64,000 bases of DNA from an uncultured Alcaligenaceae bacterium. GTDB taxonomy: Bacteria; Planctomycetota; Planctomycetia; Gemmatales; Gemmataceae. The stretch lies in NCBI GenBank assembly GCA_964423615.1, contig CAYRFQ010000011.1, positions 84,548 to 148,547 on the forward strand. Direction: 5' to 3'. Shown in pieces: positions 27,345 to 62,009 of the stretch. The translations under genes and the position numbers were made by a program. The notes under the pieces were generated by a model. That model was not told the origin of the DNA. It saw only the letters and a program-made list of their open reading frames with translations, and did no database searches. How positions within the stretch are numbered: position 1 is the first letter of the stretch; each line of letters starts with the position of its first letter.

Positions 27345-27731
27345 TTCATGACTCCTGCAATTCGAGAAAGGAAAAAGGTTGATGAAGTTTAACGAGTAGC
27401 CAATTCGATGGGAATGTCAGTAACCAGCAGAAGAGGCGGGTTTTTGTCAGGAAAGAAGTGCGTTCAGATGCACCGAACAGACGGCAGGTGAAAGGGTACT
27501 TGCGCTTGCGCTAGATGTGTGGGCAAGAATGAAATGCAGAAAACCGTATGTGGTTAACTGGTCAACGAACCTAATGGCCCCAAGCAAATTCAGATAGCTT
27601 CGTTTAGGTTGGTGGCTTCTCACTATTGCGACCTGCGCGGCCAAGGAAACAGTCGTTGATCGCCTTTGGCGCTAAACGCTCAAGTACCCAATCATTATGA
27701 CCAGGCTACTATAACCTTGGCCTTGGGTGGA

Positions 27732-27860
27732 CGGATCAACAAGTGTCGTGTTTGTGTTGGTTCATTGCGTTTCGTGGGTTTGTACCGACGGTTAGGCCCT
27801 ATCGCTCCCTGGGAGCTTAGAAACCAAACCACGACTCTTGTTTAGCCGACTGCTAGAGTG
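27732..27860 (+). repeat. Intergenic structured repeat element, copy A (family of 3 in this window)
   Basis: The 5' arm (GGACGGATCAacaAGTGTCGTGTTTGTgtTGG...TTTCGTGGGTTT) and the 3' arm (AAACCAAACCACGACTCTTGTTTAGCCGACT) are the conserved parts shared with the other two copies. Copy A's 3' arm is imperfectly complementary to its 5' arm. Confidence 0.7.
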
Positions 27861-33467: not shown

Positions 33468-35065
33468 AAAGTGGCTAACTCCTCTCTCGACTCTTCATCC
33501 AGATCAACCACAGAGTGAGGCAGTGCCAGCTGTTGTATCTCATGGCTACCTTGACGGCTTACTGTCAGAAAGTAAGCGAACTCGTCTTGAGAACACAACG
33601 ATCCGAGCTGATCCCAGGTTTCCGACAGGTTGTGTCGAGGGTGTTGCCTCTTCACTCTTTCGGGGGCATTGATCATCACGGTGTGGGCTGTGCTTGAAAT
33701 TTTAACTCCGAGGACATCTGGTCCTTCAATGCTATATCCAACCTGGTGGGCTTTGTGGCATATAGCCCCGGCCTGGGAAAGGACGGAGCGTCGCAGTCGA
33801 GCGTTAGCTGCTCCGGTGGTCTTCACCAACCAGACATCCAGCGGCACGCAATCTCGAACCTGTTCGGTGAGGAGGAACGACCGCAGTGTGCCGCACTCCA
33901 TGACTTTGTGACCAACGGCCAAAACTGTCGGCACCGGGAACCCGAATCGTTCCAACCGAAAGATCGTTTTGGCCACCTCGAATTGTTTTCCAACCAGAGA
34001 CTTTTTTCGAAACCAGTTCCAGAAACGAGTCGTCGGAGGATCTTGGTCTTGAACAACGAGTGTTGCCGGGGATTGCCTCGTCTCAGAGATGTTTGTTGGT
34101 GGTAAAGTCAGGTCGAAAACCAGTCCCCCGTCATTCGCACACGATTCCGGCTTGGCGTACACATCCTCTAACACTTCGGGTACTCGTCCACCAACATCTG
34201 TCGCAAATTCACGGCTGAAGCAGAAGGTCTCCCCCTCGAACCAGATCAAGTTTTGTGCACCAGCCCGCAAGGGAGGTTGTCGCATTTCATGAAATCGACT
34301 TTTGTGCCACAGGCGACGTCGTCGCTGTCGAATAAACCGGAGTGCAGCCGAGAATGAAGGGACGTGGGTCTCAAGAGTCTCCATCGTATCGAGGTAGCAT
34401 CGCAGGAAGGATAGTTGTTGCTCCTCTGGAGCAAGATACGGGGCGATGGTGGCATGCAAAGAAGACAAATCCCGAAGGCGGTTGTTCCACGAACGTGAAC
34501 GAACGGCTCGCTGCCAGTCAAGCAGGATGATGTCATCCAGCTTTGCCGTTGAGAACAGGACGTGCTTGGAGTAGAGGTCTTTGTGGACCCATCCCGTAGC
34601 ATGAAAACGAGCGATTGTCGTTGCCAAGGACGTGAAGACCTCTTGACGGTCCAGGTGACAGTCGAGGTTTTCCAATAATTCACGCAAATCAACGACTTCT
34701 ATGCATTCTTTGAGGAGTAAGAACGCTTGTCCCTGGTCATCTTCTCCAGCAGCGATGGGGGTCGGAATTCCGACCACCTGCTTCTTGCGCATGACTTGGA
34801 GTGTGTGAAATTCACGAACAGACTTGGACGTCCAACCAAATCCATTGGTCCAGTTTTCCAAGCGATCTTTCCATCTCGTCTGGTGTTCTCTTTTGAGAAA
34901 ACACTGCTGGTGTTGAGTGCCGTTACCAACCTCAACCCGAGACACATTGCGGTCGAGGTGTCCGGAGTAGATGACCCCTTGCAGGTTGAGAAAGTCGGAG
35001 ACGGTCTTGAGTCCGTAGTGTTGCAAGAGTCGCTGGTAGTCAGGATGAATGAGCAATTTAGGCAT
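33464..35065 (-). CDS. Tandem (duplicated) lipopolysaccharide-kinase-family protein
   Basis: There are two kinase-like halves. The N-terminal half has GWVHKDLYSKHVLF...LLDWQR. The C-terminal half resembles the preceding gene (FEVAKTIFRLERFGFPVPTVLAVG...). The start is trimmed to MPKLLIHPDYQ. Confidence 0.6.
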   Translation of the reverse strand: MPKLLIHPDYQRLLQHYGLKTVSDFLNLQGVIYSGHLDRNVSRVEVGNGTQHQQCFLKREHQTRWKDRLENWTNGFGWTSKSVREFHTLQVMRKKQVVGIPTPIAAGEDDQGQAFLLLKECIEVVDLRELLENLDCHLDRQEVFTSLATTIARFHATGWVHKDLYSKHVLFSTAKLDDIILLDWQRAVRSRSWNNRLRDLSSLHATIAPYLAPEEQQLSFLRCYLDTMETLETHVPSFSAALRFIRQRRRRLWHKSRFHEMRQPPLRAGAQNLIWFEGETFCFSREFATDVGGRVPEVLEDVYAKPESCANDGGLVFDLTLPPTNISETRQSPATLVVQDQDPPTTRFWNWFRKKSLVGKQFEVAKTIFRLERFGFPVPTVLAVGHKVMECGTLRSFLLTEQVRDCVPLDVWLVKTTGAANARLRRSVLSQAGAICHKAHQVGYSIEGPDVLGVKISSTAHTVMINAPERVKRQHPRHNLSETWDQLGSLCSQDEFAYFLTVSRQGSHEIQQLALPHSVVDLDEESREELATL

Positions 35066-35145
35066 CGAGTGGCTTCGCTTTGTTGGAGGGTAATGCGACG
35101 TCACGCCATCAGACCGACACGTATTCAATTGATAGGACGTGCCCG

Positions 35146-36305: not shown

Positions 36306-37799
36306 CTACGCTGCTCGGAGGTTGCCTGAAAGATTCGTTGCCGGGTAGGCCACCTCCACCGGTGGTTGCACCCGGCCCCCATACGACTCAACGAATTCCT
36401 TCTCAACGGCCTCAGTACTGATGGCGTTTTCCCTTGGCACAAGGACATCGGGGCGTATCATCTCGATTAAATTCCAAGGACTCGAGTCGTCGAATGTCAC
36501 CACGTAGTCAACGGACTCCAAGCTGGACACCACGGCAACACGTGCTTCGTGTGAGTTGACCAGAGGGTTGTGACCTTTCGAGTGATGATCGCTCGCGTCC
36601 GAACTCACACCGACAATGAGGACGTCGACTTCCGCCCTCGCCGCCCGGAAAGAATTAACATGCCCGACTTGCAACATGTCGAAATCGCCACTGGCAAACC
36701 CTACTCGTTGACCCAACGTCCGACGGATGCGCAACTCCTGGGACAAATCCTTTAGGGACACCACCTTCACGATGCTAGGGACCAAATCCGTTTGTGTTCC
36801 GGCTCCATGATGCAGAAGGTCTTGCAGTATTTCATCCCGAGTGACCGTCGCAACCCCGATCTTCTCGACTTCCAAGCCACCGGCAACGTTCGCCAATGCG
36901 ATGGCTTCTTCGTAATTTCGTCCAGAGGCCAAGACCATTCCCAACATGGCCAAGACCATGTCCCCTGCCCCGGTGATGTCGTACACTTGACGGGGGCGTG
37001 TGGGGAAGATCTTTTCTGTCCCATCTTGGTGAACAAACGCCATCCCGTCCTTGTCCAGTGTAATGAGCGAGGCCTCCAGACCGAGATCTTGAACTAACTG
37101 CTGCCCTGCTCGGAAAACGTCCTCTTTGTTGTTGAGGGTCAATTCTGTTCCGAGACTCGCTTCGAGTCGGTTTGGGGTGATTGCCGAGCAGCCATGATAC
37201 TTCCGATAGTCCTGACCTCGGATGGGATCTACGAGAATGCGAAGATTATTCCGTTTGGCGTTCGCAATGACCTGGGCGAGTAAGTTGGGTGTACACACCC
37301 CCTTGTCGTAGTCACTCACCAACACGATGTCCGACTGAAGGACCTGGCGTTGGATGTACCGTCCGAGTTCTCGTTCGATACCGTAGCCCACCGTCGACGC
37401 GTCTTCATGGTCGACGCGTAACATCTGTTGGGGGTGCCTGTGTTGTGCGCGTCCGATGTAACGTTCTTTGACGGTCGTTGGCCGGTCGGGATCCGAGATC
37501 ACGCCCTCGTAGTTGATAGACAACTCCGTGAGGAGTTGTTTCACTCGCAAGGCGTCCGAATCTGCCCCGACGACACCAGCGACTGAGACCTTGGCACCCA
37601 ACGCCCGCAGCATGGTGGCTACGCTGCTCGCGCCCCCGAGTCGTTCTTCCTTTCGGTCGGCTTTGAGGAGGATGACGGGAGCTTCCTGACTGATGCGTGA
37701 GGCATCACCCCAGACATACCGGTCGAGCATCAGGTCCCCGACAACCAACACCCTTGGTTGTCCGAGATTCTGCACCAGTTCGATCAAGTCTGCGGACAT
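36306..37799 (-). CDS. hldE: Bifunctional D-glycero-β-D-manno-heptose-7-phosphate kinase / heptose-1-phosphate adenylyltransferase
   Basis: An N-terminal ribokinase-like domain (RVLVVGDLMLDRYVWGDASRISQEAPV) precedes a C-terminal cytidylyltransferase domain (VGFASGDFDMLQVGHVNSF). Confidence 0.85.
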   Translation of the reverse strand: MSADLIELVQNLGQPRVLVVGDLMLDRYVWGDASRISQEAPVILLKADRKEERLGGASSVATMLRALGAKVSVAGVVGADSDALRVKQLLTELSINYEGVISDPDRPTTVKERYIGRAQHRHPQQMLRVDHEDASTVGYGIERELGRYIQRQVLQSDIVLVSDYDKGVCTPNLLAQVIANAKRNNLRILVDPIRGQDYRKYHGCSAITPNRLEASLGTELTLNNKEDVFRAGQQLVQDLGLEASLITLDKDGMAFVHQDGTEKIFPTRPRQVYDITGAGDMVLAMLGMVLASGRNYEEAIALANVAGGLEVEKIGVATVTRDEILQDLLHHGAGTQTDLVPSIVKVVSLKDLSQELRIRRTLGQRVGFASGDFDMLQVGHVNSFRAARAEVDVLIVGVSSDASDHHSKGHNPLVNSHEARVAVVSSLESVDYVVTFDDSSPWNLIEMIRPDVLVPRENAISTEAVEKEFVESYGGRVQPPVEVAYPATNLSGNLRAA

Positions 37800-37838
37800 G
37801 GTGGGATACCTCATCTATTGTGGTCGTCGATGGCAGTA

Positions 37839-40212: not shown

Positions 40213-40345
40213 TCGGGTAGGCGGGTCAATTGTGTCGCGTTTGTTGTGGTTCTTTGGGTTCGGTGGGTTTCCACTCACGGCGAGGATCTGGCGCCCCTTC
40301 GGAGCCTAAAAACCAAAACACGACTCTTGAGCCGACTACCCGAGC
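40213..40345 (+). repeat. Intergenic structured repeat element, copy B
   Basis: The 5' arm is GGTAGGCGGGTCAattGTGTCGCGTTTGTTGTGGTTCTTTGGGTTCGGTGGGTTT. The 3' arm is AAAACCAAAACACGACTCTTGAGCCGACTACCCGAGCG. It is alignable with copies A and C. Confidence 0.7.
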
Positions 40346-40785
40346 GAGAAGAAGGACTTTGATGTGCTCCCACCGCAAACGGAAACCCCTCTAAATTCCC
40401 GTTTTCAGGGCAAGGGGTGTCACCGGCTTGGGAAGCCACTTCGGAACCACAATGGTGTGCCGTCGCAGGCTAGTCTCACCCTATCATGATTTCTCGGCAC
40501 GTCATTTCGGAGCCTCTTTTCGCGGCGATACCTTAGTTGGGTTTCAAGAGATTCCTGCTCCTTCGTGATGTCGACTTCAGGGGGAGCCCTGAGAGAGGTA
40601 AGATCGGAAGATTGTTCCGGTTGTTGCACCGAAACCTATCCAGTTTTGGCAACCTTCGTTGGTTTTCCCAACAGTCATCCAACCGGGCTTTGTCGATACC
40701 TTGAGAATAAGTAAGCGACGCTCTTGCACCATTTGGATGCTCTCACTGTCGAGCACCTCGATTCACCCGAGAGGAGAGGTCAGAA

Positions 40786-42667: not shown

Positions 42668-43888
42668 TCAGGCGACTGCCGCGAGTAACCCCTCGGCGTG
42701 TTCGGCTTCTTCGTTGCGGATGAAGGTGATTTGTTCTTTCAAGTCGGTGAGAATGTCCCGAATGTGGTCCTCAGTTAAGGGAAATTCGTTCTGGATTTCG
42801 GCCTCCACTTTTTCCAACTTATTCGTCGTGGAACCTAGCGTTTTTTCTCCCTTGGCACCTTTCTCGGCATAGACTTTGGCTCGCTTGGTGATCAACTCCT
42901 TGGCCGCCTTGAAGGGTTTGATGTCGTCGGGCAAGGCACAGTTGGCCAGTTCCTTCCATCGGTCATGAAGCACTTGGTACCCACCAGCGAGTTCTTCGAG
43001 CGTTGGGTTCTCGAGGATGTCAGCAGCTTCGACAAGGAAATCATGATACAAGGCCCGGTGGAGTCCTCCGACATCGCTGAGAGTTTCGATCGAAACGTAG
43101 ACGTCGCGGAGGGCTCGGTACATCAACCCATCGCGATAGAGTTTGAGCCAACCGTCCTTGTTTTTGTCGTTATCGATGAGCTTGACCCATTTGTCTAGCC
43201 CGGCGAGAGTGAACGTGCCGATTCGGCCACGAAGCATCGACTCGGCGCAGGCTCGAATTCCCAACGTTACCGCTGATTGGAGTTGTTTGAGCGAAACGTC
43301 ACCTGTGGAGTGCAACGTGAAGGTACGGTTCTTGTGACTGCAAACTCCGGCCCGAGCCTCTGCGAGTTGTTCGAGCGAAAGTGTCCATTTTGTCGGGGCT
43401 CGGTCGTTGACCAAGGCGACATTGTTTCCTTCGTCCACACCGGAAACGAGGAACTGTCCCATGAACCCGTCGCAAGCGTCGTGCGAATTCAAAATAAATG
43501 GGATTTTTGGTCTCGAACACCAGACGATTGTGGGGTGTCCTTGCTCGAGTTCATCGATAAGGTTCTGCAAGGCCTTCTTCTTCGCAGAGGTTTCGGTGAT
43601 GTGGGAATCCAGTTCCAATCGGTCGCAGAACTCTTGATACCAACTCGAATCCGTGGCCATGGCCTTGTATCGCCCGACGATATGGAGTCCAGTTCCCATC
43701 CCGTGACGAACGACCGATGGACAGAAAGAGTATCCGGCCCCAATTCCTCCCGCCACGCCGAAACACAAGGCTTCGGAAAATAACTCGTGGGTTTTGGGAT
43801 GGGTCACACCAACAAACGCCATCAGATTCCTCAAGTTCGTGGAATCCGTGAGGACCCCTCCGGCGTGTTCATAATTCGCAACTTGCAT
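42668..43888 (-). CDS. Hypothetical protein (possible BtrH_N-like papain-fold N-domain + C-terminal helical domain)
   Basis: A ~405-aa protein with no secretion signal. The N-domain has a conserved-looking Cys/His (ALCFGVAGGIG...SFCPS...H). The assignment is tentative. Confidence 0.45.
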   Translation of the reverse strand: MQVANYEHAGGVLTDSTNLRNLMAFVGVTHPKTHELFSEALCFGVAGGIGAGYSFCPSVVRHGMGTGLHIVGRYKAMATDSSWYQEFCDRLELDSHITETSAKKKALQNLIDELEQGHPTIVWCSRPKIPFILNSHDACDGFMGQFLVSGVDEGNNVALVNDRAPTKWTLSLEQLAEARAGVCSHKNRTFTLHSTGDVSLKQLQSAVTLGIRACAESMLRGRIGTFTLAGLDKWVKLIDNDKNKDGWLKLYRDGLMYRALRDVYVSIETLSDVGGLHRALYHDFLVEAADILENPTLEELAGGYQVLHDRWKELANCALPDDIKPFKAAKELITKRAKVYAEKGAKGEKTLGSTTNKLEKVEAEIQNEFPLTEDHIRDILTDLKEQITFIRNEEAEHAEGLLAAVA

Positions 43889-44141
43889 GGATGCCTCGCG
43901 TGGTGGTGTCATTCGAGTGACAACGGACCGTCATCCTGATCTCACCCCAAAAGTGGTGGATACGTGTTGTAAACTGATCGGTCTAGTAACGGCTATGTCA
44001 GTAGTCGGAAATGTGCGGTGTGAGGTATTCCAGTTGGTGGGAGTGGCACACCCGCCAGATCCGGGATTGTCCGGACTTTTTATAAGTGTTATCTTGCTTA
44101 CCCGTTTTAACAACAATCTACCGGATGCGAGGGACCGCACC

Positions 44142-47100
44142 GTGCAAGTGAGCCTCATCAGTTTTAACGCCAGGGAAGGCGATGCCATCGGACTCCAGGT
44201 CGTAACCCAAGCGAACTTCTTTCGCGAACGCGGTTCGTCGGTCCGGGTCTATGTTCAGCAGACGCAAGCGATCCATCCCGATCTAGAAAAATCTGTGCAG
44301 GCCATTCCCGATGGATTGTTGTCGGCGGAAGAATGGGAATATCTCCAATCGTCGGATTTGATCATCGCGCAATACGGTCAGCACTACGAGTTGCTGGATC
44401 ATCTCCCCGGGTTGGTTCGTGCCAAGCCGAGGATTCTTGTCGACTATCACGGAGTGACGCCACCTCACCTGTGGGGCACGCACAACAATAAAGCCTTGGT
44501 CCAGGGCGTCCGGCGACGGGACCTACTTTGGTTTGCCGATGCCATTTTGACTCACAGTGATTTCACGACGAACGAACTCAAGCGTTTTGGTATTCCAGCT
44601 GGCCGCATCTGGAAAGTAAGGTATGCCATCGATCTGCCGGAACTCGATCAGGAACGGTCCCGGAATCGATTCCGTCAACGTATGGGATTTCGTGAGCAAC
44701 GAGTTCTGTTGTATGTGGGTCGGTTCGCGGCCAACAAACGGGTTCCGTTACTCGTCGAATCGCTCAAGAGTCTTGTCAGTGTTGGGGAAGATGCCCACCT
44801 TTGTTTGGTCGGAGACACCAGTGATCTTTACCAACAAGAACTGGAAAAAGTCGCGACAGCATCGGCCGATTACGAACTTTCGGACCGCGTTCATGTTTTG
44901 GGCCATCTCGTTGGCACGGCCTTGTACGATGCGTTTTGTGGCAGCGATGTATTCGTCACCGCTTCGGAATGGGAGAGTTTCTGTATTCCCCTTGTGGAAG
45001 CAATGCACTTCGGATTGCCCGTCGTCGGAGCCCGTGCGACCGCCATTCCCGGCACGATCGCGAATGATGGATTGACGTTCTCGTTGAACAACGCGTCGGA
45101 GCTTGCAGACGTCTTGGTACGGATGAATGAGCCTGGATCGGTCATTGCACCAGCCGGAAACCCGAGCGAGGAGAGGAAAGGTGTGCCAGCGCTGCGTTTG
45201 TCACACCCCACAAGCAAGCCTACCATCGGCATTGTCATCGACGATGGCTCCATCGTGAATGGGGTAACGAATTCACTCAAGACGATGGCTCGGTCTCTCG
45301 TCACAAGCGGCCACACGGTGGAAGTATTCGTGTCTGGAAAGCCCAAAGGAAATGAATCGGACGAGTTCCGCGGGGCGAAGGTTTCGTTCTACCAACCCGA
45401 GTCCGGACGTCCGGAAGTCGTTCAAGAAATCACGAGAGGCCTTCAACACAGCCGATGGCCAACTCCGGAGGAGCAAGAACGTTATCTCGATTCACTGCCC
45501 TCCTCCCCGTCTCTGGTGGACGCCGTACGATCCCGCACAGATGAATTGTCGGCAGTGATAGTTGGACCGTATTTGTCACGGTTGAGTGCGGAAGTCGTGG
45601 AGGCATGCCCAGAGAAAACGCTCCTCGTTCCGTGCTTTCATGACGAACGACAAGCTCACTGGCCAATGTGGCCTAGTGCCTATCGGCGGGTCGGCGGGTT
45701 TCTCTTTCACAGTCAAACGGAAGCGGACTTCGCTCATGCTCAACTTGGCTTCAACCACCCGAATTCCGAAATAGTTGAGACGTTTCTCGACGCACCCAAA
45801 CTCCACGCAAATCTCCCGCGACGATTGCAAGATCGACGGTATCTGGTTTATTGTGGACGCTACATTGCAGAGAAAAACGTGCCGCTGCTACTCGAATGGG
45901 CCGAGAGATACCAAGCCGCACATCCGGACCGATGGCAATTCGTTTTCATCGGCAGCGGATCGATTGCCATCCCAAAGGCCAAATGGGCCTTCGATCTTGG
46001 CGTTGTCTCCCGGGAGTATAAGGATGTCATTCTTGGCCATGCCGATGCGTTGATCCAACTGTCGTGCAACGAGTCGCTGTCGTTGGTGGCCCTGGAGGCG
46101 TGGCAACAAAGTACGCCGGTCATTGGACATCAGGACTGTGAGGTCCTCAGGGAGCACATGGAAAGTGCAGAAGGCGGTTCCTCTGGCTGGCTCGTTACGG
46201 ATTATCGTTCGTTTGCCGGAACCTTGAATTCGGTGTGGGAAAACGAAGATATTGCTCGAGTTGCTGGAGTAGCCGGCCGCCGGTTTGTGGAATCGAAGTA
46301 CCGAGACCAACAGAAGTTCACGGCGAAAATCGAACAGGCTGTGGATCGGTTGTCGATTTCCCTCGCCGAACAAATGCGAAGGCGTGGAGTCGCGCGGGCA
46401 ACACAGTACTCGCCGTTACGATGGCGAGAAACATTCACCGAAGTAGTGGAAAGAATCCTCCACCAAACGCCGCGTGAACCGCAACTGGCACTTGAGGTTC
46501 GGCGTCGAGTCGCCAAGCGGAAAGTTCCTGGTGGGACGCCTACTTATCTACTCCCCACACGAATTCGCAATTGGGGAGAATATCCGGTTGTCCCCGACGG
46601 ACCAATGCGTGTCGAGCTGTGTTCGCAGGCTATGGATCCAGAGACCAGTGAACCGGTAACCCGGGTAATGACGACAACGCTGCCGAAAACCGTTGCACCC
46701 GGCCAAACGATTTCGGCAGCGGTTCGAGTTCGGGTCCCGGAAGCACCTGGAAAATACCACGTCCGATTATGGGCGCGACTGGTTGAAGGGAACGACGAGG
46801 TCATGCCTCCTCGCGGAGACAAACTGACCAGTACCATGAAGTTACTTGTAACCGGGCAGGAAAAAGCGGATTCGCACCTTGGGTGTTCTGTCTTGATGGA
46901 TCACGTTCACGATGACATCCAAGAAGCCGAGGAACTTCAGAAACTCCCTGATGACTACCTCGATGTCACCCAAGGTACACTCGCGAAACTCAAGCGACGT
47001 ATCAAACACAAGCTGTTGAACAATTTCAAGGTGGCCTATGTCGATGTGCTTTCGCGGCAACAATCGGCGTTCAACCAACAAATTTTGAACGTCGTGAAGG

Positions 47101-47207
47101 AACTCGCTGAGTGCTGTGCTCTACTCGATCATGCTGTCGAGCAACTCCAACAGCAAGTCAACACCGCAAGCCAATCTTTACCCAAACGAGTCCGTCAGCG
47201 ACAATAA
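44142..47207 (+). CDS. Giant tandem glycosyltransferase (two GT4/family-1 domains) with C-terminal coiled-coil region
   Basis: GT4 domain 1 ends with the EX7E motif (SEWESFCIPLVEAMHFGLPVVG). GT4 domain 2 has NESLSLVALEAWQQSTPVIG. The C-terminal ~300 aa are helical and charged. The ORF opens at 43887, overlapping the upstream gene. The start is proposed at an in-frame GTG at 44142 (VQVSLISF...), with an alternative ATG at 43995. Confidence 0.65.
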   Translation: MQVSLISFNAREGDAIGLQVVTQANFFRERGSSVRVYVQQTQAIHPDLEKSVQAIPDGLLSAEEWEYLQSSDLIIAQYGQHYELLDHLPGLVRAKPRILVDYHGVTPPHLWGTHNNKALVQGVRRRDLLWFADAILTHSDFTTNELKRFGIPAGRIWKVRYAIDLPELDQERSRNRFRQRMGFREQRVLLYVGRFAANKRVPLLVESLKSLVSVGEDAHLCLVGDTSDLYQQELEKVATASADYELSDRVHVLGHLVGTALYDAFCGSDVFVTASEWESFCIPLVEAMHFGLPVVGARATAIPGTIANDGLTFSLNNASELADVLVRMNEPGSVIAPAGNPSEERKGVPALRLSHPTSKPTIGIVIDDGSIVNGVTNSLKTMARSLVTSGHTVEVFVSGKPKGNESDEFRGAKVSFYQPESGRPEVVQEITRGLQHSRWPTPEEQERYLDSLPSSPSLVDAVRSRTDELSAVIVGPYLSRLSAEVVEACPEKTLLVPCFHDERQAHWPMWPSAYRRVGGFLFHSQTEADFAHAQLGFNHPNSEIVETFLDAPKLHANLPRRLQDRRYLVYCGRYIAEKNVPLLLEWAERYQAAHPDRWQFVFIGSGSIAIPKAKWAFDLGVVSREYKDVILGHADALIQLSCNESLSLVALEAWQQSTPVIGHQDCEVLREHMESAEGGSSGWLVTDYRSFAGTLNSVWENEDIARVAGVAGRRFVESKYRDQQKFTAKIEQAVDRLSISLAEQMRRRGVARATQYSPLRWRETFTEVVERILHQTPREPQLALEVRRRVAKRKVPGGTPTYLLPTRIRNWGEYPVVPDGPMRVELCSQAMDPETSEPVTRVMTTTLPKTVAPGQTISAAVRVRVPEAPGKYHVRLWARLVEGNDEVMPPRGDKLTSTMKLLVTGQEKADSHLGCSVLMDHVHDDIQEAEELQKLPDDYLDVTQGTLAKLKRRIKHKLLNNFKVAYVDVLSRQQSAFNQQILNVVKELAECCALLDHAVEQLQQQVNTASQSLPKRVRQRQ

Positions 47208-47247
47208 AGAATCCAAAGACTCAGCTAAAATTTTCGGAGCTCAGGCA

Positions 47248-48174
47248 ATGCGATGTTTGGTTACTGGTGCGGCAGGGTTTATCGGTTCTCATCTCTGTGA
47301 ACGACTCCTCTCAGACGGGCACGAAGTCGTTGGCCTTGACGCTTTCATCCCCTACTATCCGCGGGCCATCAAGGAAACGTATCTCACGGGTTTGAGAGAT
47401 CACCAAGCGTTTACGTTTCACGAACTGGATCTTCGCAGCGACCCTCTCGTGGCGGCGACGGAGGGAGTGGAAGTGGTTTTCCATTTGGCGGCGATGGCTG
47501 GGCTCAGGAAGAGCTGGACGGACTTCGATCTCTATCAGAGCTGTAACTTGACGGCGACTCAGCGACTGATCGAAGCTGTCCGGGACTGTGACACACTCAA
47601 ACGTTTTGTGTATGCTTCGACTTCTTCGGTCTACGGGAGGTTTTCTTCGGGGAACGAGAGCTTGCCAACTCGGCCCACGTCGCCTTACGGTGTGACCAAG
47701 TTGGCGTCAGAGAATTTGTGTGGAGCGTTTGCGGAGGAATTCGGTCTGCCGTTGGTGATCATCCGGTACTTCTCGGTGTACGGGCCGCGGCAACGTCCCG
47801 ATATGGGTTACTGGAAGTTCATCAACGCGATCCTCAACGACGAAGAAATTACGGTGTTCGGGGACGGTCTGCAGGCTCGTGGCAACACCTACGTCACCGA
47901 CTGCGTCGAGGCGACGATGGGGGCCGTGGATTGCATCGTGGGTGAAGCCTATAACCTCGGAGGTGGAGAAACGGCTAACGTTTGGGACATCATTCGCAAA
48001 GTCGAAGCGATTCTTGGAAAGAAGGCGAAGGTCAAACAAGGTCCCGCTCGACCGGGGGATCAACGTTACACTTGTGCCGACACGTCGAAACTCAAACGAC
48101 ACATCGGCTGGACTCCTAAAACGACTCTCGATGAGGGATTGGCCCAACAGGTGGAATGGCAACGGAAGAGTTAG
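47248..48174 (+). CDS. NAD-dependent sugar epimerase/dehydratase (extended SDR)
   Basis: MRCLVTGAAGFIGSHLCERLL is the GxxGxxG Rossmann motif. The catalytic YxxxK (PYGVTKLASE) is present. The ATG was verified at nt 47248. Confidence 0.85.
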   Translation: MRCLVTGAAGFIGSHLCERLLSDGHEVVGLDAFIPYYPRAIKETYLTGLRDHQAFTFHELDLRSDPLVAATEGVEVVFHLAAMAGLRKSWTDFDLYQSCNLTATQRLIEAVRDCDTLKRFVYASTSSVYGRFSSGNESLPTRPTSPYGVTKLASENLCGAFAEEFGLPLVIIRYFSVYGPRQRPDMGYWKFINAILNDEEITVFGDGLQARGNTYVTDCVEATMGAVDCIVGEAYNLGGGETANVWDIIRKVEAILGKKAKVKQGPARPGDQRYTCADTSKLKRHIGWTPKTTLDEGLAQQVEWQRKS

Positions 48175-54463: not shown

Positions 54464-54664
54464 CAGCTTTTAGAGCGGTTTGGGGTTTTGTGAGATACGG
54501 TGGGCAGTCTCTCGAGGTACTTAGCCCAGCGCATTTCCTGCTTCGCTCGGTTCAGGCTTCTCGAGGTAAGACCACTTCGTGATCCTTCCGGTTCCGTTAC
54601 GTTCTCCGCTTCACTCGCTATGATTCCCGCTTCGCTCGGGTTTGGGGCCTTTTTTCCGCAAGGA

Positions 54665-54800
54665 TGGACGGATCAGTAAGTGTCGTGTTTGTTCTGGCTC
54701 TTTGGGTTTCGTGGGTTTGAACACACGGCTAAGATCTCTCGCTTCGAAAGAGCTTACAAACGAAAACACGACACTTGTTTATCCGACTACCCAAGCGGGG
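54665..54800 (+). repeat. Intergenic structured repeat element, copy C
   Basis: The 5' arm is TGGACGGATCAgtaAGTGTCGTGTTTGTTCTGGCTCTTTGGGTTTCGTGGGTTT. The 3' arm is ACAAACGAAAACACGACACTTGTTTATCCGACTACCCAAGCG. The 5' GTGTCGTGTTTG pairs with the 3' AAACACGACAC. Confidence 0.7.
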
Positions 54801-54965: not shown

Positions 54966-57428
54966 ATGTCATCCGCCAATTCGTCGAAAATGTATTTGCT
55001 ATCCGGCAACGGTAGTACCGCCGGGTGGTGGCGTGATGCGTTGCCGCATTTCCAACGACTCGAGCCGATTCCGTTAGAACTTCCTGGGTTCGGTGATAAT
55101 CCAGATACCCGATTCCACAGCCTGGACGAATTGGCCGAAGCACTTATCGAGATGACTAAGCCGGGCCACCAGATTTTCGTGGTCGGCGTGAACGGGCTCG
55201 TTGTTTTGCACGCGTTGGTTCGTGCTCCGCGACATTTCGACCGTGTCATTCTGCTGGCACCCGTCGGGGCCTTTCTGTGGGAACGCAACTTCGTCAAAGT
55301 GATGAAGCTCAAGCCGTTTCGGAAACTGATCCACTGGATTCTTCGCACAAACCCCAAATTCTTTCGCCGCAAGTTCACCCAACAACAGTGGCCCGACGAA
55401 ACTTACGAACGTCTTGCCGAGGGCTACCGGAAGTGCCGCGCGTTCCAGCCGTATTTTGATATCGTTCAAGCTCATTCGGCGCTCAATTTGTTCGAGTGGA
55501 TCACCACACCAGTAGACTTGGTCTGGGGAACGAAAGATGGCGTGCTCGGGGTGGAACAGGCTGCGGCGTGGGACTCGATCCTGCCACGCGCTCCTTTGAC
55601 GATTACGATCCGCGAGGATTGGGGGCACTACCCTTATCTCGATGATCCAGCTGCCTTTGTTCACGATTTGGAATCGTTCCAGGGTGAGTTTCCAGCCCAC
55701 ACCAAGGCTGGTCGATTGAAACTTGCCAAACTGGCTGGGCTTCCCGTACCCAAGCAAACTTTCGTTGCCAACGTTGATGAATTGGAATCGGCCCTTGCCG
55801 ACTTTTCCCAAGATCAAGTTTACGCTGTTCGTTCGTCGGGGGTCGGGGAAGACCACATCGAGCATTCTCACGCCGGTCAGAACGAGACATTCCTTCGCGT
55901 GCCGTCTGCTGACATACACGAGAAAGTCCGCCTGTTGCTTGAAGAGCACGAATTGGCTTCAGCAGTCGTTCAGCAATTCATTGAACCTCGAGTTTCGGGT
56001 GTTGCCTTTTGCCGGTGGATGTCGCTGGAGATTGAGTACGTTTCCGGCCACCTGGAAGAATACATCAGTGGGAAGGCGACGCCGCACCGCGCGATCCTGT
56101 CGAAGATGCCGGGGGACTGGACGTTAGGTCCGCAGCCGTTGCCTCAGGAGCCAACTTTTTCCTTCACCGAACTGGGGAAATTCCTACGTCGGTGCCTTAA
56201 GGCCTTTCACTATCATCCGTCAGACATCGAGTGGGCGTGGGACGGCAGAGACTTTTACCTCCTTCAGCTACGACCAATCACGCAGTACGATTGGCGACGC
56301 TGCCTGACTTCGGCCAACCTGGACGAGTTGTTACCTCCACGAGTCAGCCGCGTCATGGAGCAAGGGCAGCGGCATGCTTCGCTTTCGATCAGTCGAATCT
56401 ACGCTTTGTGGGACCCCTGCGTTCTGAATGATCACGAGCCCTTCACGACGACGAGCAACGATGCCTCCTACATCAATGCCGACTTGTTTCTCTCTCGCAT
56501 GTTCGACTGGGGTTTACCGAGTAGCTTGCTGGCGAAAGAGATTGGCGGGGCGGTTCCGCGGTTTTCGTTCAACTTTTTTCGATTCGTCCGAAGCTTGCCG
56601 ATCCTTTTGAAGATGCAACGAGTGGTACGGCGAGAGATTCAAAAGGTTGAGCAAGGACTCCTCCAGTTCGAACAGGAGTTAACCCAACTTGAGCAGCGAG
56701 AATGGACCAGTTCTGCCCTTCGAGACGAAGCTCTCGTCAACTGGTTTGTACGATACTATGCGTTTATCGTCCGGTCGAACATGATCATTAATGCATGTTT
56801 GACGACGTCTGGGGGAAATTTCCTGGGGCGGCCTCGAACCGTCTATCGGGACATGGAAGGCGGTAAATCGCTCCATCGTCTGGAGTTCGAAAGTGATCCG
56901 GCCACACCGCGGGAGAAAGGGGAAGCTCCACCTTTGCAACCATTTCCCAAATGGGGTTTTTGGACGCGGCTTGGGAACTGGTTAGGCGTTCCGGGGTTGG
57001 GAGGTCGGTATTTCGAAGTGCGAGAGTGGTTCCGCGATAACAATATGCGTTTGTTCTTCCGATTGCATCATGCACTTCAGGGAAGCGAATGGTTGCAGCC
57101 CATTTCTGGTACCCGTGATCGCAGCGGAACCTTCTGGCAATCCGGGGGGGAAACACTGCAACAAGATTTTTCGTTCGTGATCTACCCTGGGAAAGTCACT
57201 GGGACGGTCGGAGAGGACATCTTGATCGTCGATGCACTCGAACCGGGGCACTACGAACGCTACAAGGAAGCTAAAGCCGTGGTCGCCCGCACGGGAGGGC
57301 GGTTATCTCACGGAGCAACGTTGCTCCGTGAACTGCGTAAACCATCAGCGGTGTTGCAAGAATTGCCTGCTGGGTTGGAAGTGGGACGAGAAGCGGTTTA
57401 CGACAATGGACGGCTAACAGGGAAATGA
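54966..57428 (+). CDS. Fusion protein: N-terminal α/β-hydrolase-fold-like domain + PEP-utilising enzyme (PEP synthase / rifampin-phosphotransferase-like) ATP-grasp and mobile phosphohistidine domains
   Basis: The N-terminal ~240 aa are α/β-hydrolase-like. The central region matches the PPDK_N/PEP-synthase nucleotide-binding domain (VYAVRSSGVGEDHIEHSHAGQNETFL...VVQQFIEPRVSGVAF...DIEWAWDGRDFYLLQLRPIT). The C-terminus is the mobile His domain (VVARTGGRLSHGATLLRELRKPSAV). Confidence 0.7.
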   Translation: MSSANSSKMYLLSGNGSTAGWWRDALPHFQRLEPIPLELPGFGDNPDTRFHSLDELAEALIEMTKPGHQIFVVGVNGLVVLHALVRAPRHFDRVILLAPVGAFLWERNFVKVMKLKPFRKLIHWILRTNPKFFRRKFTQQQWPDETYERLAEGYRKCRAFQPYFDIVQAHSALNLFEWITTPVDLVWGTKDGVLGVEQAAAWDSILPRAPLTITIREDWGHYPYLDDPAAFVHDLESFQGEFPAHTKAGRLKLAKLAGLPVPKQTFVANVDELESALADFSQDQVYAVRSSGVGEDHIEHSHAGQNETFLRVPSADIHEKVRLLLEEHELASAVVQQFIEPRVSGVAFCRWMSLEIEYVSGHLEEYISGKATPHRAILSKMPGDWTLGPQPLPQEPTFSFTELGKFLRRCLKAFHYHPSDIEWAWDGRDFYLLQLRPITQYDWRRCLTSANLDELLPPRVSRVMEQGQRHASLSISRIYALWDPCVLNDHEPFTTTSNDASYINADLFLSRMFDWGLPSSLLAKEIGGAVPRFSFNFFRFVRSLPILLKMQRVVRREIQKVEQGLLQFEQELTQLEQREWTSSALRDEALVNWFVRYYAFIVRSNMIINACLTTSGGNFLGRPRTVYRDMEGGKSLHRLEFESDPATPREKGEAPPLQPFPKWGFWTRLGNWLGVPGLGGRYFEVREWFRDNNMRLFFRLHHALQGSEWLQPISGTRDRSGTFWQSGGETLQQDFSFVIYPGKVTGTVGEDILIVDALEPGHYERYKEAKAVVARTGGRLSHGATLLRELRKPSAVLQELPAGLEVGREAVYDNGRLTGK

Positions 57429-58763: not shown

Positions 58764-61700
58764 ATGCATCGCGAGATTTCGCACATTGATGAAGTGTTCC
58801 ACCCCGAACACAACTACACGCTTTACCTCATGACGATCGTCATGGGTCTGCTGATCGGTGCGGACTTGTGGTTGATGTTTGCCGGTTGGCCCGTCGGGTG
58901 GACGAACACGGTTTCGCTCGGGCCGTTGTTGGGCGAATGGCGGATTGGATTGATCGCGGCGTTGTTGGGCGCGGCTCGAATCCTCTACACGTCGCTCGAA
59001 TCGCTTTCCGAGGGTCGCCTTGGGGCCGACATCGCCTTGGGGATTGCGTGCATCGCAGCGATCCTCCTTGGTGAACCGCTTGTGGCTGCCGAGATTGTCT
59101 TCATTGGTTTGTTCGGGGAGTGCCTCGAAAGTTTCACTTTCGAACGGACGCAGACCGCGATTCGACAACTGGTCGAAATTCAACCACGTCGGTGTTGGTT
59201 GCTCAAAGATGGTCAGGAAGTCCGTGTCTTCACCGACCAAATTGAAGTAGGCGACAAGGTGGTCGTCAAGCCGGGTGCGAGGATTCCCGCCGATGGCAAA
59301 GTCGTCGAGGGGCAATCCGCCGTCGACGCGAGCACCATCACTGGTGAATCGCTTCCGGTCGACAAGGGGCCTGGAGATCAAGTCCTGGCGGGTTCACTCA
59401 ATCAATTTGGAGCCCTCACGATCGACTGCGAACGGGTGTCGGACCAGACCGTTATCGGGCGAGTCGTCAAGCTCACTTCGGAAGCCCTCAAGAACAAAGC
59501 TGGTATCGAACGGCTGGCCGATCAGATGGCGAGGTACTTCTTGCCGGTCGTGTTGGGACTGGCGTTGCTCACGTTTTTCGGCGGCCTTGTGTACTACGGA
59601 ACGACGTGGTTTCGCGGTGCCGAAGCGGCAACGATCGACTGGAAAGTGACTTTCCGGATGGCGACGTATCCATCCCTGGCGGTATTGGTGGTTGCGTGTC
59701 CGTGTGGTTTGATCCTGGCGACCCCCGCGGCCGTCATCGCAGCCTTGGGGAGACTCGCCGGAACGGGCGTCTTGCTCAAGAGTGGTGGTGCGCTCGAACG
59801 CTTGGCGACGGTTTCGGGCTTTGCGTTCGACAAGACCGGAACGTTGACCGAGGGCAAACTCCATCTGGGCGATGTCGTTGGTCTCCACGGAACCGAAGAG
59901 AACCAACTGCTCTGGCTCGCAGCGACTGCCGAACAGAGAAGCGAACACCCGATCGCCCAAGTCATCCTGACGGAAGCCAAGAATCGCAACATTAGTTTCA
60001 CGGAAATTCAAGACTTCCAGGCCCATCCCGGTGCTGGAGTTTCGGCACGAACGTCCGAAGGCGACCTGGTGGTCGGTAACCGACGATTGATGGAGGACCG
60101 AGGAATCCACATCGGTCCGGAAGTCGAAGAGGCCCTCGAGAAGTTCGACGAAACCGGACAAACGACGCTCTTGGTGGCGCAAGACAATCAGATTCGTGGG
60201 GTCATTGGAGCTCGGGATGAACTGCGGGACGATGCGTTTTCGGTCCTCCAACAACTCCGTGAACTGGGCATTCTTGATTTGGCGTTGTTGACAGGGGATC
60301 GGAAGGCTGTTGCCAACACGATAGCCACTCGTCTCGAAATCGCCAACGTTCATGCTGAGGTGTTGCCCGCCCAAAAAGCGGAGATCGTTGGCCAGATGAA
60401 GCGATCGGCTGAGGAGCGGGTCAAAAGCCAGGCGGAAACGAAGAAGCTCTTTGCGGCTCCTGCTGAGGGGCGTGTCGCGATGGTTGGCGACGGAATCAAC
60501 GATGCTCCGGCTCTTGCGACGGCGGACGTGGGGTTGGCCATCGGTAGCGGGACGGATGTTGCTGCCGAAGCGGGCGACATCGTTTTCATGGGCGATCCAC
60601 TCAAGCCCTTGCCGTTGTTGGTGAAGCTATCGCGAGAGACCGTCTCGATCATCCGACAGAACATCCTCATTTTTGCGTTCGCGGTGAACCTTGTAGGGAT
60701 TGTGGTGACGGCGTGGTTGTGGCCGATACTGTGGCCGCTCTTTAAAGAGCTCGTTGGGTGGCAAGATTGGGAGGTGGAGTCGACGACGAGTGGTGTCATC
60801 GCGGCCGTAGTCTATCACCAATTCGGGTCGTTTGCCGTCCTGGTCAACTCGATGCGTCTGTTGTGGTTCGAACGAACTGGAGAAGGAACCGTTATTGGTC
60901 GGATTCGTTCGGGCTTCCAAGGCGTCGACCAATGGATCGAAAAGTATCTGAATGTTGGGGAAGCGATACACATCATTGCCCACCAGTGGAGGATTACCCT
61001 TCTCTGCGTGGGACTTTTGTCGGTTGGCGTGTATTTCCTGAGTGGGTTTACGCAAATCAATGCGGACGAAATCGGCATTGCCCAACGGTTCGGAAAAGTC
61101 GTGGACGAACTCAAGCCAGGATTACATTATCGTTGGCCGTGGCCAATCGAATCGGTGGCTCGCATTAAGCCCGACGCCATTCGGACTGTCACTTTGGGTT
61201 ATCGCGTGACGGACGAGAAGGGGACTCCGAAAAGTTTCTCCTGGAGTGCCAAGCACGCCGAACAGCAGCGGATTCCGGAGGAGTCGCAAACCATAACTGG
61301 GGATGGGTATTTCATAGAACTCCAAGTTGCCTTGCACTATCGGGTGAGCGATCCGAAGAGCTTTCTGTTCGAGGTTCGCGACCCGGAAGAAGTTATCCGA
61401 GCGGCTTTGGAAGCGACCCTGCGAGAAATCGCCTTGCAAAAGTCGGTTCCACAAATGTTGACCGAGCAGCGTGAAAAACTGGAGGAGCAAGCTCTCGCTG
61501 AGGTCACCCGGCGTTGCCTCGCTTACGGTCCGAGCGGGGTCGGTGTGGAGTTCGAGAGTCTTGCGTTGCGGGACTTACACCCACCTCCGGAAGTCGTTCC
61601 AGCATACATCAAACTTTCCAAGACGCTCGAAATCAACGAGAAGAAGATGATTCGGGCGAAGACCGAAAGTCAGCGAGCCATCGCACAAGCCCAAGCGGAC

Positions 61701-62009
61701 AAGCAACAAACCAGCGAAGTCGCGGCCGCTGCCAAGGATAGCACTATCGCCAAGAAAATGGCGTGGATGCAAGCCAACCTCACGGTAGCTGAAGCACGGA
61801 AGAAAAATCCCCAATTGACGGATATGGAACTTGCACTGAAGGCCAAGGAAGAAACTTTGAGAGATCGCACGATTCATCTTTCGAACCCTGATTATGTCAT
61901 CGTTCGATTGGTCTACTACGGGCGGGATCTTGTGAATTCGTTACGGAGGTTGGTTCCGACGTTTCGACCGGGACCGGAACCGCGGCGACCGTTCGAGCCA
62001 GGAAGATAG
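58764..62009 (+). CDS. P1B-type heavy-metal-translocating ATPase fused to C-terminal HflK-like SPFH (band 7) domain
   Basis: The TM metal site is ACPCGL (CPC). The phosphorylation site is FDKTGTLT, the hinge is VGDGINDAPAL, and the TM8-like segment is HQFGSFAVLVNSMRLL. No N-terminal HMA/CxxC domain is present. The His-rich N-terminus reads MHREISHIDEVFHPEH. After an extra TM helix (ITLLCVGLLSVGVYFL), ~300 aa align with HflK. The aligned segments are IGIAQRFGKVVDELKPGLHYRWPWPIESV..., LHYRVSDPKSFLFEV..., ...LRDLHPPPEVVPAYIKLSKTLEINEKK. Confidence 0.85.
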   Translation: MHREISHIDEVFHPEHNYTLYLMTIVMGLLIGADLWLMFAGWPVGWTNTVSLGPLLGEWRIGLIAALLGAARILYTSLESLSEGRLGADIALGIACIAAILLGEPLVAAEIVFIGLFGECLESFTFERTQTAIRQLVEIQPRRCWLLKDGQEVRVFTDQIEVGDKVVVKPGARIPADGKVVEGQSAVDASTITGESLPVDKGPGDQVLAGSLNQFGALTIDCERVSDQTVIGRVVKLTSEALKNKAGIERLADQMARYFLPVVLGLALLTFFGGLVYYGTTWFRGAEAATIDWKVTFRMATYPSLAVLVVACPCGLILATPAAVIAALGRLAGTGVLLKSGGALERLATVSGFAFDKTGTLTEGKLHLGDVVGLHGTEENQLLWLAATAEQRSEHPIAQVILTEAKNRNISFTEIQDFQAHPGAGVSARTSEGDLVVGNRRLMEDRGIHIGPEVEEALEKFDETGQTTLLVAQDNQIRGVIGARDELRDDAFSVLQQLRELGILDLALLTGDRKAVANTIATRLEIANVHAEVLPAQKAEIVGQMKRSAEERVKSQAETKKLFAAPAEGRVAMVGDGINDAPALATADVGLAIGSGTDVAAEAGDIVFMGDPLKPLPLLVKLSRETVSIIRQNILIFAFAVNLVGIVVTAWLWPILWPLFKELVGWQDWEVESTTSGVIAAVVYHQFGSFAVLVNSMRLLWFERTGEGTVIGRIRSGFQGVDQWIEKYLNVGEAIHIIAHQWRITLLCVGLLSVGVYFLSGFTQINADEIGIAQRFGKVVDELKPGLHYRWPWPIESVARIKPDAIRTVTLGYRVTDEKGTPKSFSWSAKHAEQQRIPEESQTITGDGYFIELQVALHYRVSDPKSFLFEVRDPEEVIRAALEATLREIALQKSVPQMLTEQREKLEEQALAEVTRRCLAYGPSGVGVEFESLALRDLHPPPEVVPAYIKLSKTLEINEKKMIRAKTESQRAIAQAQADKQQTSEVAAAAKDSTIAKKMAWMQANLTVAEARKKNPQLTDMELALKAKEETLRDRTIHLSNPDYVIVRLVYYGRDLVNSLRRLVPTFRPGPEPRRPFEPGR

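Follow-up and report, generated by a model that had tools for sequence, protein, structure and literature searches.

A putative small-molecule dikinase carrying an alpha/beta-hydrolase-like domain that probably lacks its nucleophile, conserved as a fusion or as an adjacent gene pair

Background

What does a protein do in which an alpha/beta-hydrolase fold, seemingly deprived of its nucleophile, is joined to a kinase of the PEP-utilising type? The question is raised by a complete open reading frame of 820 codons plus stop (positions 54,966..57,428, plus strand) in a 64,000-nucleotide stretch of a Gemmataceae contig (CAYRFQ010000011.1), which we analysed as a whole and refer to as the window. 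Four modules follow one another in its product: a serine-less alpha/beta-hydrolase-like domain, a minimal ATP-grasp, a helical middle domain and a swivelling domain with a candidate phospho-carrier histidine. Pfam and a Foldseek structural match bear out the hydrolase fold, PPDK_N-type ATP-grasp and phosphohistidine domain of the first-pass annotation. Literature searches found no paper on this architecture, and existing annotations read 'alpha/beta hydrolase', 'PEP-utilizing enzyme' (NCBI and JGI) or, wrongly, 'pimeloyl-ACP methyl ester carboxylesterase'.

Upstream of the gene, beyond a gap of 500 bp, is ftsH; downstream comes a convergent 6-pyruvoyl-tetrahydropterin synthase (PTPS) gene, and sulfatase and P-type ATPase genes are also nearby. 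No operon partner was found in the gene context of the window, and that context offers no clue to the substrate; aromatic-catabolism or prodiginine (pig or red) genes were likewise not seen near the reading frame or its homologues in the contexts examined. Upstream, an Rfam search for a riboswitch or leader returned just sub-threshold miRNA-precursor matches to a long hairpin, which we rejected as a gene-specific regulator because it is a dispersed repeat.

Results and discussion

The kinase part probably belongs with the RPH-like dikinases

The ATP-grasp spans residues 245-440 (55,698..56,285, plus strand). It matches Pfam PPDK_N above the cut-off (E 5.5e-15), and the NCBIfam models of PEP synthases and rifampin phosphotransferases (RPH) align to residues 256-440. 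Its key nucleotide- and magnesium-binding residues, namely Lys247 in a 'GGK'-like motif, R289-S-S, E295-D296, D420-x-E422 and Q434-x-R436, are invariant in the 42 homologues over which all residue counts given here were taken, and the AVRSSxxxED, DIEWA and LLQxRP motifs align residue by residue with the PEP synthases 8A8E and 2OLS. As the PPDK_N match begins only at about model position 85, this ATP-grasp lacks the helical insert found in canonical enzymes. The mostly helical middle domain that follows (residues 441-745, about 305 amino acids; 56,286..57,200, plus strand) sits where RPH has its rifampin-binding domain and contains about 60 invariant residues; a search for similarity to the RIF-binding domain itself detected no direct match. 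The swivel domain closes the protein (residues 746-820; 57,201..57,425, plus strand; Pfam PEP-utilizers at 750-796). Its putative phospho-carrier, the invariant His782 (codon 57,309-57,311, plus strand) in G-G-R-L-S-H-G, corresponds in the alignment to the catalytic motif GGRT(S/C)H in PEP synthases and lies no more than about 50 residues from the C-terminus, a position used to define RPH-like dikinases (PMC12167813).

The first-pass annotation had named PEP synthases and RPH together as possible relatives. These two lines part at PEP-utilizers_C, the PEP/pyruvate-binding TIM barrel, for which Pfam gives no match even at E<=1. RPH-like enzymes have only the ATP-grasp and swivel domains in common with PPS and PPDK (PMC12167813), so the missing barrel agrees with that class and places the protein among RPH/PigC-like enzymes rather than PEP synthases. 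The suggestion that it might make PEP thus falls. That it is nonetheless a PEP synthase or pyruvate phosphate dikinase variant of central carbon metabolism, as its database names might imply, is scarcely credible: the PEP-synthase equivalog models do match weakly over the ATP-grasp and swivel, but at 48-61 bits against cut-offs of 598-972, and the swivel is C-terminal here, not central.

Within the RPH-like class, RPH itself is a candidate to be weighed. The Listeria monocytogenes enzyme (RPH-Lm; PDB 5HV1, 5FBS) is the best whole-model structural match found by Foldseek, and it shares with our protein the same order of ATP-grasp, large helical domain and C-terminal swivel with a GGxxSH histidine on one polypeptide. 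Identity to it is about 14%, however, and our protein differs in its extra N-terminal domain, in the lack of the ATP-grasp insert and in its middle domain. The NCBIfam RPH equivalogs score 40.6 bits against a cut-off of 999 (NF041857) and 25.4 against 1700 (NF000283). The family also occurs in taxa of no relevance as antibiotic targets (Planctomycetota, Bacteroidota), and its genes are frequently linked to a YfcH-type SDR. A mobile resistance gene was considered and rejected, as the only plasmids that match most of the protein are large non-mobilizable Burkholderia replicons. An RPH orthologue that inactivates rifamycin-type antibiotics and bears an incidental extra domain is therefore very improbable, and rifampin inactivation, which had been mentioned for stand-alone proteins of this class, is not indicated.

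The prodiginine-ligase equivalogs also score far below their cut-offs (PigC 33.4 bits against a cut-off of 1300, RedH 26.4 against 1350). The two-component phenol dikinases HpeHI, PpsAB and CreHI and the prodiginine ligases PigC and HapC do share the combination of an ATP-grasp with an acceptor-binding and swivel-histidine unit (PMC12167813; PMC13534948), and the two-component enzymes illustrate that modules can be divided between polypeptides, the divisible module in our family being the hydrolase-like partner. The members described in those two studies differ in having no alpha/beta-hydrolase-fold module, whether fused or paired.

The hydrolase-like domain keeps a catalytic dyad and has probably lost its nucleophile

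The N-terminal domain (residues about 8-240; 54,987..55,685, plus strand) has an alpha/beta-hydrolase fold with a helical lid. The first-pass annotation had tentatively placed Asn at the nucleophile position; when the family profile is aligned with BioH, AtD14 and RsbQ using hhalign, BioH Ser82, D14 Ser97 and the catalytic Ser of RsbQ all fall on Gly74 of the elbow Gly74-Val75-Asn76 (55,185..55,193, plus strand; codons checked), and Asn76 becomes nucleophile+2. The earlier register was thus probably off by two, while the idea of a hydrolase-like domain without a nucleophile survives, in that the position aligned with the catalytic serine holds no Ser, Cys or Asp. Gly74 is found in all 42 homologues, and position 76 is Asn in 40 and Ser in two. 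At positions 74-77, at the strand-beta5/helix-C elbow, 37 of the 42 have neither Ser, Cys nor Asp; the other five have Ser at 76 (two) or 77 (three), neither of which is the catalytic-Ser-aligned position. Distant relatives have G-H-G-I-G-G at the elbow, the classic GHSxGG with Gly in place of Ser. The register rests on profile alignments and family comparison at the level of sequence. Pairwise phmmer alignments were set aside as mutually inconsistent, one placing PlaF Ser137 on Gly77 and others deleting 'NS'.

The rest of the catalytic apparatus is at its canonical positions. By hhalign, Asp191 (55,536..55,538, plus strand) aligns with BioH Asp207 and D14 Asp218, and His221 (55,626..55,628, plus strand), in W-G-H-Y-P-Y, with BioH His235 and D14 His247. 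Both are invariant in the 42 homologues; in distant partners the acid is Asp or Glu and the histidine is retained in every case. The same alignments put Asn15 (55,008..55,010, plus strand; 42/42) at the oxyanion-hole residue position of BioH Trp22 and D14 Phe28, in an invariant G-N-G loop that distant partners also retain, fused or split. After strand beta6, this clade and the distant partners also share a conserved basic residue, Arg107 (P-V-G-x-x-L-x-x-R). Of the triad that the earlier reading left to be confirmed, acid and histidine are therefore kept and the nucleophile is lost: the catalytic Ser has probably been replaced by Gly74, with the His221-Asp191 dyad retained. At the level of sequence, this rules out canonical ester hydrolysis by way of an acyl-enzyme intermediate.

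The domain differs from BioH, D14, KAI2 and RsbQ in two of these places, the nucleophile Ser having become an invariant Gly and the oxyanion-loop residue an invariant Asn, and the BioH model scores only 41.5 bits against a cut-off of 207. Catalytically inactive proteins of this fold are familiar among eukaryotes, where ABHD5/CGI-58 has Asn and the neuroligins have Gly at the nucleophile position and the fold is used for binding or activation. They resemble our family in losing the nucleophile while keeping the fold, but they are not known to be linked to a kinase or to conserve the His-acid dyad strictly, as the fusion family does.

Hydrolase-like module and dikinase form a recurrent pair

Whether the fusion is conserved among homologues can be answered directly. 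Full-length fusions at 46-69% identity occur in at least 388 species genomes, among Planctomycetota, Bacteroidota, Pseudomonas, Burkholderia and other Betaproteobacteria. The same serine-less module accompanies more distant kinase relatives (about 30-34% identity), where it is recognisable by GHGIGG, HGNGG and W-x-H-F/Y-P. In three of these (P0187, P0225 and P0171) it is fused to the kinase; among seven stand-alone relatives examined, five have it as a separate upstream gene abutting or overlapping the kinase gene; for the stand-alone relatives P0178 and P0186 no such module was found adjoining the kinase gene. By hhalign, the kinase part matches the stand-alone relatives over its whole length (probability 100%, E 3e-62, 565 columns). 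A profile of the family's N-terminal domain gives the dikinase-associated modules 60-142 bits, against 21-25 for BioH, D14 and RsbQ, so that by sequence these modules are a subfamily of their own. The occurrence of one and the same module fused to the kinase or encoded directly upstream of it in distant relatives argues for an obligate hydrolase-like/dikinase pair and not a chance fusion; at the level of sequence, the fusion is one form of this wider pairing.

A second recurrent neighbour, of the fusion family and of a distant relative, is a YfcH-type SDR, and one relative has a fused AhpC/TSA_2 thioredoxin-fold domain. We found no established biochemical function for YfcH/DUF1731 in the literature. 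No YfcH-type SDR adjoins the Gemmataceae gene in the window: a search there for c1 (YfcH-SDR) and c3 (a membrane protein), which are partner genes in Pseudomonas, gave as its sole match an NAD-motif similarity to an ordinary sugar epimerase, and neighbour-gene clustering placed neither gene near the Planctomycetota and Bacteroidota homologues.

A proposed mechanism, and other roles for the pocket

Taken together, we favour, with a probability of roughly 60%, an ATP-dependent small-molecule dikinase of the RPH/PigC/phenol-dikinase class whose hydrolase-like pocket has been repurposed for a non-hydrolytic task. The overall reaction of RPH is ATP + acceptor + H2O -> AMP + Pi + phospho-acceptor (PMC4844700); the mechanism of the class is documented for RPH and also for PpsAB and HpeHI (PMC12167813). 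By analogy with these enzymes, RPH-type chemistry is expected here, in the following order. Mg-ATP would be bound by the minimal ATP-grasp; the swivel His782 would attack the beta-phosphate to give pyrophosphoryl-His and AMP; the gamma-phosphate would leave as Pi; and the swivel would carry the phosphohistidine to a second site, where an acceptor hydroxyl would be phosphorylated (or an oxygen activated). In this kinase clade the hydrolase-fold domain would then serve as an obligate partner and not as an esterase. With its His221-Asp191 dyad, its Asn15 oxyanion loop and a pocket that is lidded as in D14, KAI2 and BioH, it may bind and orient the acceptor or product, probably something small and hydrophobic, and it may add general-base and oxyanion-hole catalysis to phosphoryl transfer, the substrate hydroxyl taking the place of the serine hydroxyl.

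The high conservation of the middle domain and its RPH-like position, however, mean that the acceptor may bind there and that the hydrolase-like domain may be otherwise employed. One such employment would be as a ligand sensor or regulator by which the kinase is gated, comparable to the D14, KAI2 and RsbQ receptors or the pseudo-enzyme ABHD5, with the acceptor held in the helical domain alone, as rifampin is in RPH. We regard this as rather unlikely. A pure binding module has no need of an invariant His-Asp/Glu dyad and GNG loop, and both have been kept, in fused and in split form, across kinases of only about 30% identity; the translationally coupled split genes, too, suggest a stoichiometric catalytic partner, though a regulator is still compatible with them. 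Alternatively, the protein could be a bifunctional hydrolase-kinase, in which His221-Asp191 activates water directly, with no acyl-enzyme, and hydrolyses an ester, a lactone or a phospho-intermediate (the gamma-phosphate of pyrophosphoryl-His or the phosphorylated product, for example) in a step coupled to the kinase. The invariance of the dyad and oxyanion loop and the conserved basic Arg107 are in keeping with this; to our knowledge, nucleophile-free hydrolysis by alpha/beta hydrolases is rare. The dikinase cycle does include a hydrolytic step, the loss of the gamma-phosphate (PMC12167813), but RPH, P0178 and P0186 have no adjacent hydrolase-like module, so this step does not universally need one, and we consider such a bifunctional enzyme improbable.

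Pathway context and significance

The preferred reading, of a dikinase with a repurposed pocket, can be extended to a pathway, though this is speculative and unlikely to hold in full. The Gly-for-Ser module and the RPH-like dikinase, joined in many lineages by a reductase (mostly the membrane-anchored YfcH/TIGR01777 SDR, in one relative the fused AhpC/TSA_2 domain), would make up a conserved, hitherto unrecognised pathway that phosphorylates a hydrophobic alcohol, with the old esterase pocket as the site of phosphoryl transfer. Alkyl or isoprenoid alcohols would be candidate acceptors, for example, as would reduced lipid carbonyls or hydroperoxides; the substrate OH would replace the serine OH, His221-Asp191 would act as general base and the Asn15 loop would serve as a 'phosphate hole'. 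A possible parallel is Mycobacterium tuberculosis Rv2047c, which combines NAD-epimerase/SDR and PEP-utilizing swivel domains and lies in an operon with pks12. Its proposed, as yet undemonstrated, role is the reductive release of the mycoketide alkyl chain followed by phosphorylation of that chain (PMC2443190; PMC7058343). There too an SDR-fold reductase is linked to an RPH-like phosphotransfer module; Rv2047c differs in its SDR subfamily and in having no hydrolase-like domain. If this is true, the alpha/beta-hydrolase fold would have gained a new catalytic use, and the YfcH/SDR39U1 family its first pathway context.

RPH-like dikinases are an emerging class, with known members in antibiotic inactivation, the catabolism of phenol and lignin monomers, and prodiginine assembly. 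The clade defined here includes common plant-associated Pseudomonas and Burkholderia, and its presence in genetically tractable Pseudomonas makes the family readily testable. Whether the pocket catalyses or senses, the annotation of these proteins can be corrected now. If the hydrolase-like domain senses a ligand, bacteria would have their own version of the D14/KAI2 receptor logic, here connected to a kinase; if the pocket joins in phosphoryl transfer, one of the most studied enzyme folds would have been put to a new use.

A three-domain protein with an RPH-like kinase

The ORF at 54966-57428 on the forward strand is single and unbroken, starts with ATG and encodes 820 aa; every peptide string in the first-pass annotation is present in its translation, and the fusion of a hydrolase-like domain to a kinase reported there is confirmed as real. 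Three domains pass their curated Pfam cut-offs: Abhydrolase_6 at residues 11-232 (E 1.1e-9; Abhydrolase_1 also matches here, E 3e-6), the PPDK_N ATP-grasp (E 5.5e-15) and the PEP-utilizers mobile domain at residues 750-796 (E 4.9e-7). A deposited protein from a Gemmataceae MAG is identical, and the remainder of the window is planctomycete-like (sulfatase, DUF4058, large WD40 proteins). The AlphaFold2 model, built from 42 homologues, is confident (pLDDT 90.4, pTM 0.90).

The protein holds both a complete ATP-grasp and a complete swivel His domain. In residue-level alignment, the ATP-grasp motifs AVRSS-x3-ED, DIEWA and LLQ-x-RP match solved PEP synthases, while the phospho-carrier motif GGRLSH782G aligns with their catalytic GGRT(S/C)H; these residues, together with Lys247 of a GGK-like motif where the ATP-grasp domain begins, are invariant across 42 full-length homologues. 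Because the PPDK_N match starts near model position 85 of 328, and the 'LPVP' turn is, on direct reading, followed by 'AVRSS' after just 25 or so residues, the ATP-grasp is a minimal version without the helical insert of canonical enzymes. Pfam places the swivel domain at the C-terminus and finds no PEP/pyruvate TIM-barrel domain in the protein. A C-terminal swivel without a TIM barrel is the layout of rifampin phosphotransferase (RPH), the prodiginine ligase PigC and the phenol dikinases, unlike that of PEP synthase (PMC12167813), and on domain order the kinase part belongs with the former.

Residues 246-815 align end to end with stand-alone proteins of about 700 aa (hhalign probability 100%, E 3e-62, 565 columns). 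Several of these relatives carry Pfam Rph_4th, and they also align with the RPH and PigC models over the final 100-200 residues. A conserved helical middle domain (residues 441-745) sits at the acceptor position of RPH-type enzymes but gives no direct match to the RIF-binding domain.

The hydrolase-like domain has glycine at the nucleophile position

G74-V-N76-G-L had tentatively been read as the G-x-S-x-G elbow, Asn standing in for Ser. At this site phmmer pairwise alignments give conflicting registers, but profile alignments of the family against E. coli BioH, Arabidopsis D14 and B. subtilis RsbQ are concordant in all three cases: the catalytic Ser falls on Gly74, and Asn76 is nucleophile+2. 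The same alignments place the acid at Asp191, the histidine at His221 and the oxyanion residue at Asn15, so that two members of the triad are kept and the nucleophile is replaced. The modelled secondary structure (strand 68-73, coil 74-75, helix from 76) and the position of Pro88, 14 residues past Gly74 with equivalent spacing in the three reference proteins, are compatible with this register. The textbook elbow motif of alpha/beta hydrolases is GHSxGG, and the strongest support for Gly-for-Ser is that relatives read G-H-G-I-G-G, the same motif with Gly substituted.

Gly74, Asp191, His221 and Asn15 are each present in 42/42 members of the clade. At position 76, 40 members have Asn and two have Ser (P. 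protegens and P. chlororaphis). Acyl-enzyme hydrolysis is ruled out at the level of sequence, because Ser, Cys and Asp are all absent from positions 74-77 in 37/42, in any register, and the other five have Ser at 76 (two) or 77 (three), neither aligned with the catalytic Ser; the His-acid dyad is retained.

Conservation of the fusion and its split partners

The fusion is conserved among homologues. Full-length versions, 46-69% identical, come from Planctomycetota (Pirellulaceae) and Bacteroidota (Raineya, Porifericola, Thermonemataceae), from numerous Pseudomonas in the fluorescens and syringae groups, and from Burkholderia, Bordetella, Achromobacter, Rhodoferax and Chitinimonas, and a relative is encoded in 388 stretches of a species-level set with one genome per species. 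Source annotations read 'alpha/beta hydrolase', 'PEP-utilizing enzyme' or 'pimeloyl-ACP methyl ester carboxylesterase', and no others.

Searched exhaustively by HMMER, residues 245-820 (the kinase part on its own) delimit a close family of about five clusters at 50% identity, all with the N-terminal extension of about 240 aa, beyond which lie relatives at 30-34% identity. Three of these distant relatives again have a fused alpha/beta-hydrolase domain: P0187 (909 aa), P0225 (991 aa) and P0171, described below. Contigs were examined for seven stand-alone relatives (about 700 aa each), of which five have an alpha/beta-hydrolase gene (241-260 aa) directly upstream on the same strand, overlapping the kinase start in three pairs and lying 2 to about 100 nt upstream in the others. 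All these modules, fused or split, share H/G-G-N-G, with Gly at the nucleophile position, as well as W-x-H-F/Y-P, and their acid residue is Asp or Glu. On the family N-domain HMM they reach 60-142 bits, whereas BioH, D14 and RsbQ score 21-25. The pattern is one of fusion and fission (Rosetta-stone), marking the serine-less hydrolase as a dedicated, obligate partner of the dikinase clade.

A metagenomic relative, P0171 (1128 aa), has four parts, namely an AhpC/TSA_2 thioredoxin-fold domain, a serine-less hydrolase, an ATP-grasp and a swivel, and hints that the dikinase is tied to a reductase step.

Gene neighbours

Two genes usually precede the dikinase gene in Proteobacteria. One, found in 44 loci and nearly always directly upstream, encodes a protein of about 480 aa (cluster c1) in which an uncharacterised multi-pass membrane region of about 180 aa is followed by a YfcH/TIGR01777 SDR (Epimerase + DUF1731; 316 bits against a 207-bit cut-off). 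The other, often present, encodes a membrane protein (about 160 aa) that neither Pfam nor NCBIfam assigns to a family. The two form a conserved operon in Pseudomonas loci L016 (directly upstream of position 8001), L018, L019 and others. In the distant stand-alone relative P0186, a 300-aa Epimerase+DUF1731 gene overlaps the stop codon. A precedent for coupling an SDR to a swivel domain is M. tuberculosis Rv2047c, in an operon with pks12, for which reductive release and then phosphorylation of the mycoketide chain has been proposed, not demonstrated (PMC2443190, PMC7058343). In the Burkholderia, Bacteroidota and Planctomycetota loci, as in this window, the dikinase gene stands alone, without recurrent partners.

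In the P. fluorescens group (L018, L024, L029 and others), the c1-dikinase pair is flanked by variable arrays of small secreted or lipoprotein-like genes, including LprI-domain proteins (clusters c2, c4, c7, c9, c11, c13, c14 and c15), which resemble a hypervariable island more than a set of functional partners. The only plasmids that match most of the protein's length are large, non-mobilizable Burkholderia replicons, and this speaks against a mobile resistance determinant.

Other features of the window

An intergenic palindrome of about 125-145 nt, forming a long imperfect hairpin, is present in three copies (54656-54800, 27725-27851 and 40232-40346; 78-80% identity), one of them in the 500 bp that separate ftsH from the dikinase gene. 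Rfam returns only sub-threshold miRNA-precursor-like matches, reflecting a generic hairpin, and the element is probably a MITE/REP-like dispersed repeat. An unusual-looking fusion at 58764-62009 (+; 1081 aa) joins a P-type (E1-E2) ATPase to a C-terminal SPFH/Band 7 domain. A very large GT4 glycosyltransferase with two GT1 stretches (43887-47207, +; 1106 aa) adjoins a BtrH_N/DUF4872 protein (42668-43912, -); since its end overlaps an NAD-epimerase ORF (47116-48174) by about 90 nt, the latter's true start is probably further downstream. A Kdo/WaaP-family kinase (33464-35128, -; 553 aa) and, nearby, a PfkB-cytidylyltransferase (HldE-like) bifunctional protein (36306-37814, -) are both LPS-core-type genes in a planctomycete context.

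Proposed mechanism

We favour an RPH-like dikinase with a hydrolase-fold partner module, at a probability of roughly 0.6. By analogy with RPH and the two-component phenol dikinases PpsAB and HpeHI, ATP would bind the ATP-grasp, His782 would be pyrophosphorylated with departure of AMP, the gamma-phosphate would be released as Pi, and His~P would swivel to the acceptor site and phosphorylate an oxygen. Our best guess for the hydrolase-like domain, held more tentatively, is that its lidded pocket binds a small, probably hydrophobic acceptor or product, and it may add general-base (His221-Asp191) and oxyanion-loop (Asn15) catalysis.

It is rather unlikely that the domain serves instead as a ligand-sensor or regulatory module, and true bifunctionality, by direct water activation, we consider improbable. 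As to the kinase, the RPH-like layout agrees with the structure, the top Foldseek match of the whole model being Listeria RPH (5HV1, E 1.9e-16), but at orthologue level no family fits: the equivalog HMMs for RPH, PigC, RedH (a second prodiginine ligase) and PEP synthase give 25-61 bits against cut-offs of 598-1700. An RPH orthologue is on these scores very improbable, whatever the structural likeness, and PigC and RedH are likewise rejected at that level; PEP synthase, whose motifs are matched, is the least credible reading, given also the missing TIM barrel and C-terminal swivel.

The mechanism class is already known and the individual folds are ordinary. Against the literature and sequence libraries surveyed, three points are new: an RPH-like dikinase and an alpha/beta-hydrolase module without a nucleophile form a conserved, dedicated pair, the elbow register of that module is corrected to Gly from Asn, and the dikinase gene is recurrently linked to a YfcH-SDR.
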